IMG/VR virus record: IMGVR_UViG_3300010383_000010
Coordinates: 241-64,240 of that record
Strand: one strand, 5' to 3'
DNA: 64,000 nucleotides
DNA from: a virus
Part shown: piece after piece, positions 29,628-35,901 of the stretch
Position numbering within the stretch: position 1 is the stretch's first letter
Layout: each line of letters starts with the position of its first letter
Position numbers and translations under genes: made by a program
The notes under the pieces: generated by a model
The model's input: the letters and a program-made list of their open reading frames with translations, nothing else
The model's database searches: none
What the model was told of the DNA's origin: nothing

Positions 29628-29797
29628 TCTGCGGGCACCTCGTCCTTATTCGTTTTGCGCAACCTAACGGCCTTGCCGGCTGCAATGGCTAGCGTGGCGC
29701 AGGCTGACGTTACCTGATAAACGCCGGGCTTGTAATCGACCGTCACAGCTGGCGTAGGCTTGTGGCTAAATGGTGAGGTTATTCTTATCCAAGCCAT
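29585..29797 (-). CDS. Small conserved neck-region protein
   Basis: TAATG overlap; WIRITSPF..YKPG..CATLAIAAGKA. Confidence 0.6.
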   Translation of the reverse strand: MAWIRITSPFSHKPTPAVTVDYKPGVYQVTSACATLAIAAGKAVRLRKTNKDEVPAEWQSATEPANSTGE

Positions 29798-30444
29798 TAG
29801 CGCCAACACCTCTTTACCCATTCATGCCGCAACTCATGCGGCTTTTCCTTGCCGTGGAAATACACAATGCGCGCATCACCAACGCCGGATTGCCGCACCG
29901 TGCCCTTGTAGGATTGCACCGCGCCAGGGAACAGATCGTCTATGTATGCGTGCGGATAACGCCGCACCCATTCCATGTCATTCTGGCCGGCGTGCTCTTC
30001 GGCAATGCGCGTCCATCCCTTGGGGATTAGTGCCACGCCGTTGCACGCTTGCCGCATCTTGTACGGGTCGCGCGGGAGCGCCTGCCGGTCCGCCGTCATG
30101 CAATAGTCAGCAAGCTTGTCACAATTGCCGGTTACAACGGTGTCGAGGCCAACCAGGATCATCGGTCCGTCAACGGCGTAGGCACGGATGCAGTCGCCGT
30201 AACCGCCTTTGCCTAAAGTCGGATCGACTATTTCAAAGATTGGTTCCTTGAAATCGCGCGCTCTATCCGTAAAGCACACAAACCGAAACGGTAGCGTCAA
30301 ATTGCGCTTGAAGCCTCGATAAAGGCGCTCAACCCATTCCTCAGTATACATCGAGGAAAACGATTGGCTGTGTTCGTTGGCTTGCCAGAACAGGGTGGCT
30401 ACGGTAAGCGCGCCGTCCTGTGCGGTGGCGCTCACGCCACCCAC
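29797..30444 (-). CDS. Glycosyltransferase-like protein (GT-A fold)
   Basis: YTEEWVERLYRGFKRNL..FRFVCFTD, LVGLDTVVTGNCD, ACNGV, GQNDMEW, IVYFHGKEKPH. Confidence 0.72.
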   Translation of the reverse strand: MGGVSATAQDGALTVATLFWQANEHSQSFSSMYTEEWVERLYRGFKRNLTLPFRFVCFTDRARDFKEPIFEIVDPTLGKGGYGDCIRAYAVDGPMILVGLDTVVTGNCDKLADYCMTADRQALPRDPYKMRQACNGVALIPKGWTRIAEEHAGQNDMEWVRRYPHAYIDDLFPGAVQSYKGTVRQSGVGDARIVYFHGKEKPHELRHEWVKRCWR

Positions 30445-30941
30445 CTGTGCCGCTTGTCGTTCCTGTTGGCGGGAACTTGCGCTAGATAGCCGTTGCGCTT
30501 GAACACCATTCCATCCGGCACGCTTCTGTCACAAACAGCGCCGGCAGCGACAACCGCGCCGCGCCCAATTCTAACCCCAGGCAAAACCACAGCGTTCGCA
30601 CCAACAATTGCCCCGTCCTCCACCACAACTGCCCAATGCTCATCGTCGCGCAGCAAATCGTCCCGATAGCCGCCCTTGTGCGCCGCCGGCCAACAGTCAT
30701 TCGCCAGCACAACGTTCGGGCCGAGAAACACATCGTTGCCGACCTTGAAGCCAGCGCCGCACTTGACGCCGCCACTCACGATCACGCGGTCACCGTAAAC
30801 GGAGCCGTCCAGCATCGCGAACGGACTAACCGAACACCCGGCACCCAGGCTCGTGCCGCGGGTAATCGAGGCAAACTGCCAAACGTTCGTGCCTTCACCT
30901 AAAACAACGTCGGCGTCGACGTGTGCAAGGGGGTGGATCAT
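30432..30941 (-). CDS. Hexapeptide-repeat (LbH) sugar acetyltransferase, WbpD/WlbB-like
   Basis: IHPLAHVD..LGEGTNVWQF, VFLGPNVVLAND, VGANAVVLPGVRIGRGAVVAAGAV. Confidence 0.88.
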   Translation of the reverse strand: MIHPLAHVDADVVLGEGTNVWQFASITRGTSLGAGCSVSPFAMLDGSVYGDRVIVSGGVKCGAGFKVGNDVFLGPNVVLANDCWPAAHKGGYRDDLLRDDEHWAVVVEDGAIVGANAVVLPGVRIGRGAVVAAGAVCDRSVPDGMVFKRNGYLAQVPANRNDKRHRWVA

Positions 30942-31303
30942 GTTTGCGGGTCCGCGCAAAGAGCCTCTTCCGTGAGCGTCCGCCACACACGATACGGCGC
31001 AAGCAGTGCCCTCACCGTGCGCGGCAGCATCGCCCCGTCAGCCTCCCACGATGCGGAACCGCGCCCTTCGTACATATCCTCCACCAGGAGCAAAACTGCC
31101 GCGGTAATGGGCGGCGTTACCTCCATGGCCGTGCCGTCATCGCCGGACGGCGCACTTCCGCCTTCTTCAAATACGATGCGGTCCAGATATTCCGTGACGA
31201 TGGTTTCCGCAGCAGACTGATACGCCGCCAAAATAGTATCGTCGTCGGTGAAGTCGGCCGCGTTGACGTGCTTTTTGACAAGCGCGGTATCTACAATTGT
31301 CAC
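30938..31303 (-). CDS. Head-tail connector (HK97 gp6-like)
   Basis: KKHVN..DDDTILAAY, AAVLLLVEDMYEGR, RALLAPYR. Confidence 0.9.
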   Translation of the reverse strand: MTIVDTALVKKHVNAADFTDDDTILAAYQSAAETIVTEYLDRIVFEEGGSAPSGDDGTAMEVTPPITAAVLLLVEDMYEGRGSASWEADGAMLPRTVRALLAPYRVWRTLTEEALCADPQT

Positions 31304-31947
31304 GCCGCCTCCAGTTCGCCGGCAGCGTCCACGCCGAACAGCGATGCAAAATCAATCTTCGGGAAATTCTCTAGCGCGCTGACCGGAGAGGCATTCAGAA
31401 CCTCAACACCGATTTCCGCCAAAAGCGGCGCGGTGTCATCCAGCGCCCGTCGCCAACGGTTGGCATTGGCAGACGTTGGGTTATGCAGTCCGCCGCCGTG
31501 CCGGCCGTGCCAATGCACGCCTTTGTCAACGCGCATGTCGTAGCCAACAAGCACAATACGCTTGGCGCCGAATTGCACGGCAAGGTTAAGCGCATGGAAG
31601 CCGCTATTGCCGCCCCAGCCTACCTCGCCGAATTTATTGATAAGCAGACTGTCATCCGCGCGCACGAGATGTATCTGCCTCAACCGCCACTCGGCGGGAG
31701 CGACGATCTCGTCGTTGCCTATCTTTAAGCCACCGAAGGACGGTACGCCGTCATTCTTTTTCCACCACTCGCCATCGCAAGCGTAAAGAACGTCAGCCCA
31801 AGGTGCCAGCTTGTACGAATTGTTAATGGCAATGACTTTTGCCTTGCCAAGCGCAAGGTCTATCGGGACTTCGACTGCGGACGGCCCCGACGCGACGATG
31901 ACGACTGTTTCTCCGAGCCAGTCAGGCCACCATCCGGGCGCCCCGAA
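31300..31947 (-). CDS. Rossmann-fold sugar-transferase-like domain (MptE/Maf-like or GT29-like), expressed as a frameshift fusion
   Basis: Frame open 31947-31300: ETVVIVASGPS, INNSYKLAPWADVLYACD, GGNSGFHALNLA..GAKRIVLVGYDM, HWHG.H; no ATG/GTG/TTG before 31683. Confidence 0.72.
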   Translation of the reverse strand, partial: FGAPGWWPDWLGETVVIVASGPSAVEVPIDLALGKAKVIAINNSYKLAPWADVLYACDGEWWKKNDGVPSFGGLKIGNDEIVAPAEWRLRQIHLVRADDSLLINKFGEVGWGGNSGFHALNLAVQFGAKRIVLVGYDMRVDKGVHWHGRHGGGLHNPTSANANRWRRALDDTAPLLAEIGVEVLNASPVSALENFPKIDFASLFGVDAAGELEAA

Positions 31948-32138
31948 AAAGGGTCGCGGCCATCGCCCCTCCGCTTCACGCTTTGCGGCGCTGCAGGGCG
32001 CTTTTCAATCGGCAACTCTTCGATGGCATAGCCGTTAGCGATAAGCTCGACGGCTTCCCAATTCGGAGCGTCGAACGTTTCACCCTTGCGAGCCGTGCCG
32101 TAGCTGCCCAGCGTCGTTTTTAGCGCGCGAAGTTTCAT
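31860..32138 (-). CDS. Small post-capsid protein (92 aa), N-terminal part of the frameshift fusion
   Basis: GGAG RBS, directly after major capsid gene; KGETFDA..AVELIANGYA. Confidence 0.75.
   Translation of the reverse strand: MKLRALKTTLGSYGTARKGETFDAPNWEAVELIANGYAIEELPIEKRPAAPQSVKRRGDGRDPFSGRPDGGLTGSEKQSSSSRRGRPQSKSR
31947..31953 (-). promoter_or_regulatory. Putative -1 frameshift slippery site C CCT TTT
   Basis: In-frame X XXY YYZ heptamer at codons 62-64; -1 frame continues 215 codons. Confidence 0.72.
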
Positions 32139-32150
32139 AAAATCTCCGGT

Positions 32151-32179
32151 AAGAAAAGGGCGGGCCGTTAAGCCCGCCC
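32151..32179 (-). terminator. Terminator after major capsid gene
   Basis: GGGCGGGC-CGTTAA-GCCCGCCC with A-run on left. Confidence 0.75.
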
Positions 32180-32188
32180 ATGCTTCAA

Positions 32189-33412
32189 TTACGAAGCGGT
32201 AGTCAGCGTGTTCAGGTCGCCCGTGACGAACGCTTCAGGGCGATAAACCGCAAGCCCAAGACGCTCCTCAACCCTCAGAGTCATGAGGTTCTTCTCGAAG
32301 TCGTCCGAGTTTTCGGTTGACAGCAGAACCTCGACTCCCATGCGATCGAAAATCTGCGCGGCGAGGTTGAACGCGCCAACCAGGAAGTCGCCAGCGCTCA
32401 TCGCCTGCGTCTGCACAACCGGCAAGCCCCAAAGGGTCGGGCCGATAGGCGAAAGAGCGCTGCCCACGATGTAGCGCTTCTCCGCGTCCTTGACGAGCTC
32501 GATGCGCGCCCAATCGGTCGGGTGCAGCACGAAGCCGCTGGCCGGGTACTCAGCCAAGATGACCTGCAGGACGGCAAGGCGCAGACGGTCAATCGCGGTT
32601 TCGTCCGAAGCATTGAACTCCGGCGCGAACGCAGTGGCCTGCGGGACAATACCGTTCAGGTTCTGACCGGAGCCGTTGCCGTTGAGGATCTGATTCTCCT
32701 CAACGTACTTCAGGCCATACGTACCGCGGGCATTGATGTAGCTAGCGAGCCCCGGAGCGTCGTCCATGATCTGGCGGGAAGCCTTGAAGATATGGGCGAG
32801 CGTGCGAACCGGGGTTGTCACCAGGTTGAAGGTGATGTCCGATTTGGGCTTGGTCGTGCCTTCGGTCACGGGGCGGGCGTTATTCGTGAAGCCCGTTTCC
32901 TTGACGTACTCAATCGAGCTGGCCGAAGTCTGCCCGGGCGCAAGTAGGTCACGGATGGTGAACTGACGATTCGGCGGGGCAACAATGCCAGGAACGCGCA
33001 TACCGGGGACCAGCGACGTACCAGCCGAGCGGCCGGCACCAACCGTGGTGTTGGACGAGGTGATATCGGCACGCTCAACGCCAACTCGGATCGAACCGCG
33101 CCAGGCGCCAACCTTGTCGATGTTCTTGAACGCCTCGGAAGCAACCAGATGATCGCCAAGGTCCATGCCCTCGGCCTCGACCACCTCGCGTTCGCGGGCG
33201 GCACGCTTCTCAAGTTCGCCGACGCGCGTAGTGGCGTCGCCAAGCTCCTTAAGAGCCTCGTCGACCTTGCCCTTCAGTTCGTCGGAAACGGCACCGGCAG
33301 CCTTCAGCTTTTCGGTGAAATCGGCGCCAAGATTGCCGACCTTTTCTTTGATATCGGCAAGCGAAGTGCCAAGCTCGCCGATCTTGTCGGCAAGCGCAGT
33401 GTTGTCAGCCAT
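32189..33412 (-). CDS. Major capsid protein, HK97 family
   Basis: N-terminal coiled-coil delta domain; TIRDLL, EGTTKPKSD, TLAHIFKAS, EERLGLAVYRPEAFV. Confidence 0.95.
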   Translation of the reverse strand: MADNTALADKIGELGTSLADIKEKVGNLGADFTEKLKAAGAVSDELKGKVDEALKELGDATTRVGELEKRAAREREVVEAEGMDLGDHLVASEAFKNIDKVGAWRGSIRVGVERADITSSNTTVGAGRSAGTSLVPGMRVPGIVAPPNRQFTIRDLLAPGQTSASSIEYVKETGFTNNARPVTEGTTKPKSDITFNLVTTPVRTLAHIFKASRQIMDDAPGLASYINARGTYGLKYVEENQILNGNGSGQNLNGIVPQATAFAPEFNASDETAIDRLRLAVLQVILAEYPASGFVLHPTDWARIELVKDAEKRYIVGSALSPIGPTLWGLPVVQTQAMSAGDFLVGAFNLAAQIFDRMGVEVLLSTENSDDFEKNLMTLRVEERLGLAVYRPEAFVTGDLNTLTTAS

Positions 33413-33471: not shown

Positions 33472-34587
33472 CTAGACGCGGAATGATTTCGCTTCGGTCA
33501 GAAGCCTTTCGACCGCTGCCAAAGCGGCAGCATCCGCATCGCCATCAGGTTCCCCCTGATCGGCCTTGAGGTAGAGCCGAGCGGCCCGCTCCGCCTCCGA
33601 ATTTGACAGGCCAGCAAGTCCCTTGAGGCCATTTTCAAATTCGCGAACTGTAATCTTTTCGCCGGCGGCCATCTTTGCCACCAGGTCGCGCGCAGCTTCG
33701 GCCTTGGCCTGGTTCTGCGCCTTAACGCGCCGCACATATGCAGGCATCGTGTCGGCTCCAAAGCGCGCCAGCGTCTCGTCAAGCGTCGCAACACGATCGA
33801 CCATGCCGCGGTCCATCAGGGCTTCAGCGTAAAACACACGACCCTGCCCGAAGCCGTCCTCAACCTTGCCGATCGTCGTGCCGCGGCCTTCAGCCACAGC
33901 GGCCACAAAGCGCTGATAGGAACGATTTACGCCGTCCTGTATATGTGCCAGCGTCTTCTTGCCAAGCGGTTCGGTTTCGTTGCCCTCAACCTTGTTCTCG
34001 CCGGCCGAAATGTACGTGCGTTTGATGCCTCGCTTTTCCAGCGCAGCCGAAATGTCGTCGTGCGCCGTATAAACGCCGATCGAACCGGCCCGCCCGCTGG
34101 GCGAAACAACAATCTCGTCCGCGCTCGCCGCAATCCAGTAGGCCGCACTAGCCGCAAGGTGGTTTACCTGCGCGATAATCGGCTTTTCGCCGCCGCGAAC
34201 GGCGCGAATCTCATTGGAAAGCTCCTCCGTGCCGGGGACAGAACCACCAGGACTGTCGACGTCCAACACAACAGCCTTGACGTCTTCATTGGACAGTGCC
34301 GAATGCAGCGCCTTGCGAATGCCGGCGTAAGACGTCCCGCCCGACATTGCCGAAAAAGCGTCCATTTTGTTCGCCAGGACGCCATAAATCGGGATAACCG
34401 CGATTTTACCATCCGTTTCGGCGACTTCCTTAGCTCGCGCATCGGAAACCGCAGCGGCGAACTCGGTCGAAAACAGCTTTTCGCCTTCGGCGCGGGCTAC
34501 GAGAATGTCGGCCAAAACGCCCAATTTCTCGCGCTGAATAGCCCATGGATCCGCCGTAAAGGCGTCCAGCAGGTGTTCAAACTTCAT
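33472..34587 (-). CDS. Prohead protease, S49 family
   Basis: LDVDSPGGSV, AASAAYWIAS, AGSIGV. Confidence 0.9.
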   Translation of the reverse strand: MKFEHLLDAFTADPWAIQREKLGVLADILVARAEGEKLFSTEFAAAVSDARAKEVAETDGKIAVIPIYGVLANKMDAFSAMSGGTSYAGIRKALHSALSNEDVKAVVLDVDSPGGSVPGTEELSNEIRAVRGGEKPIIAQVNHLAASAAYWIAASADEIVVSPSGRAGSIGVYTAHDDISAALEKRGIKRTYISAGENKVEGNETEPLGKKTLAHIQDGVNRSYQRFVAAVAEGRGTTIGKVEDGFGQGRVFYAEALMDRGMVDRVATLDETLARFGADTMPAYVRRVKAQNQAKAEAARDLVAKMAAGEKITVREFENGLKGLAGLSNSEAERAARLYLKADQGEPDGDADAAALAAVERLLTEAKSFRV

Positions 34588-34596
34588 TGAAATTCC

Positions 34597-35901
34597 TTAA
34601 GCAGCGCGTTTTTGCGGCTGTTCGGCCGGTTTTGGCTGTGTGGTGGTGGCGACGGGTGGCGCATTGTCGTTTGCGGGCCGTGGGGCGGGCGTTTCACCCA
34701 GTTTTTCCAGTGGAACCATGGCGCCCTGAACTATCAGGCGGTCGCCGCCCGGCTCTTTCGCCTTGTTTTCGTAGGCGCGCGCCTCGTCCGGCGTGTAAAT
34801 GCCGTTCGTGACCATCTTCGACAGAAATTCGGCTCTCGCGGTGCTGTCGCCACGCAAAAGTCCCTCCATCGAGAACTTCACGATGGTTGTTTTGCGCGTT
34901 TTCGCGTCCAGCAAGTCGCGATAGATGGCCGATTCAATGCTTCGCAGCATTGGCGTAAGACACGTCTTGGTAAACTGCAGGATTAACTGCTCGATACCGC
35001 TGCCCCAGGTCGTCGTGCCGTTGGCCGCGTGGCCAATCATTACAGGCGGAACGCCGAAGATCCGGCAAATCTGCTCAACTGAATACTGACGCGCCTCCAA
35101 AAGCTGCGCGTCCTTCGGGTTGATACTGATCGCGTGCGGCGAAAGCCCCGCCTCCAGTACAGCAATGCCGCCAGCGTTCTCAGCACCGGCAAACGATTGA
35201 AGTGTGTCGCCAATCTGCTTGCGCTGTTCGGGCTTCAGCACCTGGTCCGACGTCAAAAACACCGTCGAAATCAGGCCCTTCTTGTACACGCGCCCAGACG
35301 ATTTCTCGCCGGCCAGCGCGTTGCCGATTACGTTACGCTCCATGCCGATAGGCGAAATACCGCGGTCACAGCCCGGCAGCAACGCGCCGCGGACATGAAA
35401 CATACGATCTTCGGTAACGCGCCGCTTGCCGCCCCTCTTGCCGGCCGCATACATGCGCTCCGTCACTTCGTAGTAACGGCGGTTGCTGTCGTCGCGCTTT
35501 ACGTCGACAGCCAACGGATCCAGCGGGATTAGCGAAACCAGCCGCTCGCCACTGAATTTCTTCTCCGCGAAGAAGTTGCCATCCAGGCAAAGGCAAATCG
35601 CTGCCATCGCCCAAAAGTCTGCCGACGTGTCGTCGAGGTTCGGCATGTCATGCAGAATCTCGTAAAGCGGCGACTTCTGGTTAACCGTCGTGCCGCCCGC
35701 ATCATACACCAGGCACGGCAGCGTCTTAACCGAATTGGCAATCAGGTTGACACAGGCCCACACGGCATCCAACTGCATGGCGCGGTCGTAATTCACAACC
35801 TCGCCGCTAGTCGTCTCGCCGCCAAAGAACCCGCGCCAAAAAGGCTCGCTGGACGCATTCAAATCAATGGAGCGCCCTAGCCATCTATCCCACCAGGCCA
35901 T
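34597..35901 (-). CDS. Portal protein, HK97 family
   Basis: AVWACVNLIA, CLDGNFF, GISPI, EQICRIFGVPP, GIYTPDEAR. Confidence 0.95.
   Translation of the reverse strand: MAWWDRWLGRSIDLNASSEPFWRGFFGGETTSGEVVNYDRAMQLDAVWACVNLIANSVKTLPCLVYDAGGTTVNQKSPLYEILHDMPNLDDTSADFWAMAAICLCLDGNFFAEKKFSGERLVSLIPLDPLAVDVKRDDSNRRYYEVTERMYAAGKRGGKRRVTEDRMFHVRGALLPGCDRGISPIGMERNVIGNALAGEKSSGRVYKKGLISTVFLTSDQVLKPEQRKQIGDTLQSFAGAENAGGIAVLEAGLSPHAISINPKDAQLLEARQYSVEQICRIFGVPPVMIGHAANGTTTWGSGIEQLILQFTKTCLTPMLRSIESAIYRDLLDAKTRKTTIVKFSMEGLLRGDSTARAEFLSKMVTNGIYTPDEARAYENKAKEPGGDRLIVQGAMVPLEKLGETPAPRPANDNAPPVATTTQPKPAEQPQKRAA

Follow-up and report, generated by a model that had tools for sequence, protein, structure and literature searches.

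The tail assembly chaperones G and GT of lambda-like phages are reportedly made by a -1 frameshift, described in 2004 by Xu, Hendrix and Duda. The capsid gene 10A/10B of phage T7 is said to be read by frameshifting as well (the work of Condron et al. in 1991), and Fraser et al. reportedly showed in 2006 that Ig-like domains are added to phage structural proteins in this way. We analyzed a stretch of viral DNA of 64,000 nucleotides (nt), positions 241 to 64,240 of the IMG/VR record IMGVR_UViG_3300010383_000010 (referred to as the window), and detected that a small gene directly 3' of the major capsid gene is overlapped by the frame of a putative transferase that has no start codon of its own. 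An earlier note on this DNA had proposed that a programmed -1 frameshift fuses the post-capsid protein to the transferase, and the comparative evidence (the frame relation, the slip element, a switch in selection, an indel-free relative and in-frame fusions) strongly supports this proposal. We put at roughly 85% the probability that a programmed -1 ribosomal frameshift yields both a protein of 92 amino acids (aa) and a fusion of 279 aa.

The pair works like G/GT without being a member of it. Common to both are a location in a morphogenesis operon of a phage, a conserved -1 slip on an X_XXY_YYZ heptamer, a short and an extended protein with a common N-terminal domain, a site conserved in position rather than in sequence and, often, the lack of an obvious stimulatory structure. 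Unlike G/GT, which is located between the major tail and tape-measure genes, the present pair is located between the capsid and head-tail adaptor genes; its predicted folds are L9-N-like and GT42-like instead of a chaperone, its extension is an enzyme and not an assembly domain, and half of the present family carries C_CCT with P-site re-pairing only. The likeness to T7 10A/10B and the Ig-like cases is that a fraction of a head-module gene product is C-terminally extended by a -1 slip, but there the capsid or tail protein itself is extended and the cargo is non-enzymatic. Slips of -1 in phage morphogenesis operons are a known kind of mechanism; what is new here is which genes are paired, that the cargo is an enzyme and that C_CCU sites with P-site re-pairing only are frequent. 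A literature search (phage capsid frameshift with glycosyl- or sialyltransferase, Tetraselmis viridis virus S20, Pseudomonas phage PAJU2) found no description of the recoding.

The entire stretch belongs to a virus record. According to the open reading frames (ORFs) and the Pfam and phrog matches, its head module is of the HK97 type and on the minus strand, as are all window features given below. The post-capsid gene (31860-32138), preceded by a Shine-Dalgarno (SD) sequence GGAG at 32147-32144, starts with ATG at 32138 and encodes the 92-aa protein in the 0 frame. It reads GAC CCT TTT TCG, so that C_CCT_TTT, an X_XXY_YYZ heptamer, is in register at 31947-31953. A -1 shift there enters the enzyme frame and gives 64+215 = 279 aa, the coding sequence being join(32138..31947, 31947..31300), with 31947 read twice. 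The enzyme frame is closed by TGA 32007-32005, inside the 0-frame ATT GAA, and from 32004 it stays open until TGA 31302-31300; the transferase domain takes up 217 aa of it from the CCC codon (31300-31953). The first ATG, GTG or TTG in this frame is TTG 31683, which lies beyond the VIVASGPS motif, some 90 codons into the conserved domain, and by eye no CTG or ATT was seen in the window ahead of the motif either. Since the enzyme frame has no start codon, the slip would be the only route to the full-length enzyme. The fusion junction is DPFFGAPGWWPDW, with the residues DPFFGAPGWW, and the 0-frame tail of the 92-aa protein is the out-of-frame reading of the conserved enzyme N-terminus. The missing start, the closing TGA, the in-frame heptamer and the length of the product had all been described in the earlier note, and they held when the coordinates were rechecked. 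Its expectation that annotation pipelines would truncate the gene was also borne out: the record of Tetraselmis viridis virus S20 annotates only a 157-aa piece, and the gene of a close relative is called as 159 aa.

Scans of IMG/VR and GTDB genomes detected about 100 related loci, mostly alphaproteobacterial prophages (e.g., Ensifer, Nitratireductor, Filomicrobium, Bradyrhizobium), with isolate genomes among them. Start-less is used here for loci in which no start of the enzyme frame is found up to 30 codons from the VIVASGPS motif; there are 47 of them, and clustering gives 43 groups at 90% identity, 30 at 70% and 22 at 60%. The frame offset noticed in the window is conserved in every one of them (47/47), the N-domain ORF lying in the frame that needs a -1 shift. 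A hidden Markov model of the N-domain, run against all three forward frames, placed the domain directly 5' of the enzyme in 59 rows (the window and redundant copies counted), all needing -1, with none in frame with the enzyme and none needing +1. The distance from the ATG to the slip site takes 25 different values among the start-less loci and the -1 relation is kept throughout, which implies that many linker indels were filtered for frame.

The conservation of the heptamer CCCTTTT, which the earlier note had named as a check, was found in part. Its CCCT core is present as C_CCT at the homologous position, 33-57 nt before the GPS motif, in 40 of the 47 loci; the full CCCTTTN is present in only 18. 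Together with one GGGAAAC these make 19 of 47 loci with a tandem X_XXY_YYZ heptamer. The other C_CCT loci continue with ACG, ATT, ACT, ACC, TCG, TCC or TCT, thus without a slippery A-site codon, so that only the P-site tRNA-Pro would re-pair, from CCU to CCC. The seven loci without C_CCT have T_TTT, A_AAA or G_GGA_AAC. Homopolymer or classic sites (A_AAA_AAA, T_TTT_TTT, G_GGA_AAC) were observed in place of C_CCT in the divergent members L064, L071 and L080-L082; in L066, also divergent, the 0-frame ORF ends 14 nt before the motif and the enzyme frame there is Lys-rich (STKKQGKKARTQ).

The best phage match is Tetraselmis viridis virus S20 (NC_020840, L001), with 47% identity and the same layout: its post-capsid ORF overlaps a start-less enzyme frame that opens at CCC TTT G after four consecutive in-frame TGA codons. 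An enzyme-frame stop lies within 15 nt 5' of CCCT in 10 loci, at 0 nt in S20 and L084, and these abutting stops pin the point at which the frame is entered. S20 carries a second phrog_4603 paralogue at L001:4916-5593. The S20 record and that of SI1 (HQ632858), both named as algal viruses, are placed in Caudoviricetes, and their head module, with the frameshift, is of the kind typical of alphaproteobacterial phages; the attribution to an algal host looks doubtful for this reason.

The selection pattern was analyzed with L108, a close relative (about 90% nucleotide identity) from an unrelated Logan assembly, whose junction aligns to that of the window without an indel and whose site is CCCTTTC. 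Upstream of the site, 17 of 21 mismatches fall at the third codon position of the 0 frame; downstream, 52 of 71 fall at the third position of the -1 frame. Purifying selection acts on the 0 frame as far as the heptamer and on the -1 frame beyond it. Because the frame relation and the slip element recur in 47 loci and the substitution phase switches at the heptamer, the pattern, as judged from sequence comparison, exceeds chance.

The same fusion exists as an ordinary gene in relatives; in-frame fusions in homologues were among the checks named in the earlier note. The enzyme part was searched against 5.8 billion proteins, and the matches were mostly stand-alone forms of 205-220 aa (some database proteins so labelled may have mis-called starts), plus proteins of 247-277 aa. 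Nine of the latter carry an N-terminal small domain and a short linker that continues in frame into ...WFPDWRGET.VIVASGPS, and the N-domain profile matched five of these nine (E 1e-6 to 1e-10). Two were checked on contigs, P0023 (L105) and P0037 (L106 and L107; present on 12 contigs), and in both cases a continuous ORF directly 3' of a Phage_capsid gene was confirmed, with no in-register CCCT. In a third arrangement (L053-L056) the N-domain protein has a 72-aa gene to itself 3' of the capsid gene, and the enzyme gene, with an ATG of its own, follows the adaptor gene. In L055 (1630-2188) the separate 72-aa gene is followed by an overlapping ORF that by eye resembles an Ig-like repeat domain. 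Stand-alone enzymes with their own ATG begin with M-x-P-x-W and have no slip-site P-F/Y residues, which the natural fusions also lack; it is therefore the recoding signal, not the enzyme, that accounts for the conservation of P-F/Y. A tree built from 191 enzyme cores has the frameshift forms in scattered positions; its well-supported branches require at least four changes, and at least two clades of fusions lie nested among those of the frameshift forms. This fits repeated toggling by single bases among separate, frameshifted and fused states.

Taken together, these data suggest the following course of events. Ribosomes would initiate at ATG 32138 of the small post-capsid gene, and most would stay in the 0 frame and make the 92-aa protein, a folded N-domain with a disordered tail. 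A fraction would slip back one base at C_CCT_TTT, with tRNA-Pro moving from CCU to CCC and tRNA-Phe from UUU to UUU, and would make the 279-aa product, composed of the N-domain, an 18-residue linker and a GT42/Maf-like nucleotide-sugar transferase. The 0-frame Asp-Pro pair might pause the ribosome. The ribosomal nature of the slip, its efficiency and the stimulatory role of an upstream GGAGG are what we infer here, and the fusion would presumably be the minor form, as the earlier note had it. The GGAGG is an internal SD-like element at 31968-31972, 14 nt 5' of the heptamer, and a candidate stimulator; its predicted duplex with the 16S 3' tail (-10 kcal/mol) ends 13 nt before the slip site. The window resembles Escherichia coli dnaX in combining a heptamer with an upstream internal SD-like element at about 10-14 nt, but dnaX has a strong downstream hairpin and the site A_AAA_AAG, whereas a conserved hairpin was not found here and the SD-like element is not universal. 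SD 4-mers are present in 9 of 46 loci against a background of 11% (p = 0.058), and a stimulator at dnaX-like distance is suggestive only.

Several observations weigh against the frameshift. RNAalifold on 36 loci predicted no pairs and no conserved downstream structure, and the hairpins of the window are no better than those of shuffled sequence (z = +0.67 for 97 nt and -0.83 for 52 nt); the second of them loses a pair in L108 through a U-to-C change. Complementarity to the anti-SD sequence is enriched 3-5 fold across loci at -29 to -4, a moderate signal with no fixed spacing. In about half of the family ACG, ATT, ACT or TCG comes after C_CCT, leaving P-site re-pairing only, a less established type of -1 site. 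In a few PY-type loci an in-frame GTG or ATG is present far upstream, 40-42 codons ahead of the motif. An ATG or GTG in the third frame, exactly 10 nt 5' of CCCT, is present in 16 of the 47 loci: it is at 31961-31963 in the window and also occurs in L001, L008-L010, L017, L028-L030, L033, L034, L042, L049, L087 and L098, forming part of the TGA that closes the enzyme frame in some loci and of an SD-like GGTG in others. No public sequencing run contains this phage (best share 0.09).

The third-frame start raises the question of whether the enzyme is made alone and unfused, by initiation at ATG 31963 (a 13-codon ORF) and a prfB-like +1 shift at CTT_T, which also reaches the enzyme frame. The GGAGG lies 4 nt 5' of this ATG, S20 has ATGATGATG at the same place, 18 of 40 loci have T at -9, whereas other third codon positions have it in 2-8 of 40, and four CCCTTTA loci read CTT TAG in the third frame. 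Such a start is, however, absent from most lineages, the invariant CCCT would be split as xCC|CTx in the third frame, and loci of the CCCTACG type offer no +1 re-pairing. The in-frame N-domain fusions of relatives show the fused polypeptide to be the selected product, and the N-domain ORF holds its -1 relation in every locus despite the many linker indels. A +1 shift from ATG 31963 was rejected as the main mechanism, the start being rare across lineages, CCCT out of register and the fusions left unexplained, and we consider synthesis of the enzyme alone quite improbable. Other non-standard routes are improbable too: slippage of RNA polymerase at the T run, non-canonical initiation in the enzyme frame, or a truncated enzyme from TTG 31683. 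The window does have a run of five T, and the stimulatory RNA structure that would suit a ribosomal mechanism was not found. But the site of most loci contains only three T or no T at all (CCCTTTC, CCCTACG), not enough for RNA polymerase to slip; internal initiation would have to do without ATG, GTG or TTG ahead of the motif in the window, where CTG and ATT are not seen either, and in S20 stop codons immediately precede CCC; and an enzyme started at TTG 31683 would lack the invariant GPS motif along with some 90 residues that are conserved and well modelled.

If the T5 run held an indel from sequencing or assembly, or if the gene were a recent pseudogene, the true gene would be an in-frame fusion or dead. 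The homopolymer runs CCC and TTTTT at the junction and the natural fusions of relatives would suit such an error. The independent relative at about 90% nucleotide identity has equal length and the same frames across the junction, the 47 loci with a common offset come from many samples and from isolate genomes, and immediately beyond the site the -1 frame is under purifying selection. From the indel-free L108, the selection on the -1 frame and the breadth of conservation, an assembly error or pseudogene appears excluded, and we regard this explanation as extremely improbable. A programmed -1 frameshift is the reading that we retain.

The function of the enzyme domain was predicted from its model and its family. 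The AF2 model is confident from residue 1 (predicted local distance difference test, pLDDT, 95.5), and Foldseek matched it to the GT42 sialyltransferases of Campylobacter, CstII (1ro7/1ro8, E 4e-5 to 8e-5, template modelling score (TM) 0.52-0.57) and CstI, to the Maf flagellin glycosyltransferase 5mu5 (TM 0.60) and to MptE HPPK 8sd5, all of these at TM 0.5-0.6 and with an identity of only 13-16%. The modelled fold resembles that of the CstII and Maf nucleotide-sugar transferases. The profile phrog_4603, named "alpha-2,3-sialyltransferase", matched with E 4e-49 (profile positions 1-171 of 178 against open-frame residues 37-221). PF01973 matched residues 123-159 only, at 22.1 bits and below the gathering score of 34.6; many homologues of the enzyme have a precomputed PF01973 match. 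The residues G23, S25, D60, D139, H147, W148 and N187 are invariant in the family, and H149 and H152 are nearly so. Phage P1 PmgO, ORF010 of Pseudomonas phage PAJU2 and proteins of Caulobacter and Brevundimonas jumbo phages belong to the same phrog_4603 family (30-37% identity), and their genes are often found among head and neck genes, as here; unlike the window enzyme, they have their own start and no N-domain.

The small protein is predicted to be folded in residues 1-42 (AF2 pLDDT about 94) and disordered in the rest (about 50-68 in the later 10-residue blocks). Its N-domain (32004-32138, about 45 aa) is predicted to be a small beta/alpha fold, putatively of the L9-N / DUF7302 / DUF7210 type. 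A Pfam scan of the 92-aa protein gave no match, and phrog_2616 matched its residues 1-52 (E 7e-9); DUF7302 was matched by 8 of 40 family members (best E 5.6e-5) and DUF7210 by two. The neighbors of the N-domain in the atlas are DUF7210, DUF7302 and L9_N clusters, at 0.84-0.89. They include forms fused to InlB B-repeat, SAP or Rho_N. The small domain gives the impression of an anchor of general use, to which various C-terminal cargoes are attached. A fold search with the N-domain found L9 N-domains and GINS B-domains at Z 5.0-5.4, within the range of common small arrangements, and a BFVD fold search with the small protein matched only uncharacterized small phage proteins.

Weaker matches of the N-domain were the C-terminal domain of lambda gpFI (PDB 2LSM; Z 4.3, root-mean-square deviation 1.1 A over 41 residues) and Bacillus subtilis YqbF (2HJQ; Z 3.7), both in the chance range for small folds. 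The gene of lambda gpFI is located immediately 3' of the major capsid gene. Lambda gpFI bridges capsid and terminase (PMC13595911). As with gpFI, a post-capsid gene encodes a small domain, here of possibly similar fold, and a flexible linker joins it to a second module; unlike in gpFI, the two come in the opposite order, the second module is an enzyme, and sequence similarity is undetectable. A capsid-docking role of the N-domain is plausible, because of the gene position and the weak fold resemblance to gpFI-C and YqbF. A complex prediction of the N-domain (1-50) with the capsid protein (85-407) gave 0.45 against 0.37 for the control, which allows no verdict and is not evidence either way. 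The N-domain may recruit the enzyme to proheads or capsids, by analogy the tether to the head that the earlier note had suggested. A more detailed model is possible but doubtful: the N-domain would be a gpFI-C-like docking module, the frameshift would set a low ratio of enzyme-bearing to bare adaptor, a few transferases per assembling head would glycosylate the capsid in situ, and evolution would have toggled the system repeatedly, by one-base changes, among three states: separate genes, frameshift and hard-wired fusion.

The surrounding genes are those of a head and neck region. The portal gene (34597-35901), the S49 protease gene (33472-34587) and the major capsid gene (32189-33412) lie upstream of the pair. 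The terminator that the earlier note had placed after the capsid gene is there, as an intrinsic-terminator-like hairpin with a T tract (32150-32179; a 9-pair stem with 8 G-C pairs, a loop of 4 and TTTTCTT) directly 3' of the gene. Whatever lies beyond it is probably transcribed at a lower level. The capsid gene of S20 has a similar hairpin and T tract on its 3' side (L001:2555-2595). Downstream of the pair is the Ad1 head-tail adaptor gene (30938-31303), whose GTG start overlaps the enzyme stop as GTGA (31300-31303), with GGAGG 4 nt 5'; translation of the adaptor may be partly coupled to ribosomes arriving in the -1 frame.

A hexapeptide-repeat acyltransferase gene (30432-30986; PF00132, E 8e-20) and a gene for a glycosyltransferase-like protein (29797-30444; phrog_1962, E 4e-39) are wedged between the adaptor gene and the other neck genes (29797-30986). 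Both genes and the frameshift-made enzyme form a candidate virion glycosylation cassette; the recruited enzyme, together with the neighboring acyltransferase and glycosyltransferase, would modify virion proteins. Freeman et al. reportedly described in 2023 the glycosylation of mycobacteriophage virions by phage glycosyltransferases that are encoded next to the capsid gene. As in that system, the genes for sugar transferases sit within the operon of virion structural genes, and their products presumably act on capsid or tail proteins; the enzyme families and the hosts are different. To our knowledge, no frameshift and no fusion to a capsid-proximal domain has been reported in mycobacteriophage glycosylation.

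If the frameshift is real, a widespread recoding event would join the short list of conserved programmed frameshifts in tailed phages, and it would be the first to attach an enzyme, instead of a structural or assembly domain, to a head-module protein. The C_CCU sites without a slippery A-site codon would be informative for the mechanics of P-site-only -1 slippage. For annotation, the transferase is truncated or missed in many alphaproteobacterial phages and prophages. The locus provides a testable handle on an unstudied phage glycosylation cassette (the phrog_4603, P1 PmgO family), and its three natural states (separate, frameshifted and fused) offer a comparison already in place for asking whether it matters that the enzyme is physically coupled to a capsid-proximal domain. 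If the docking reading is true, these phages would have a capsid-tethered protein-glycosylation system.

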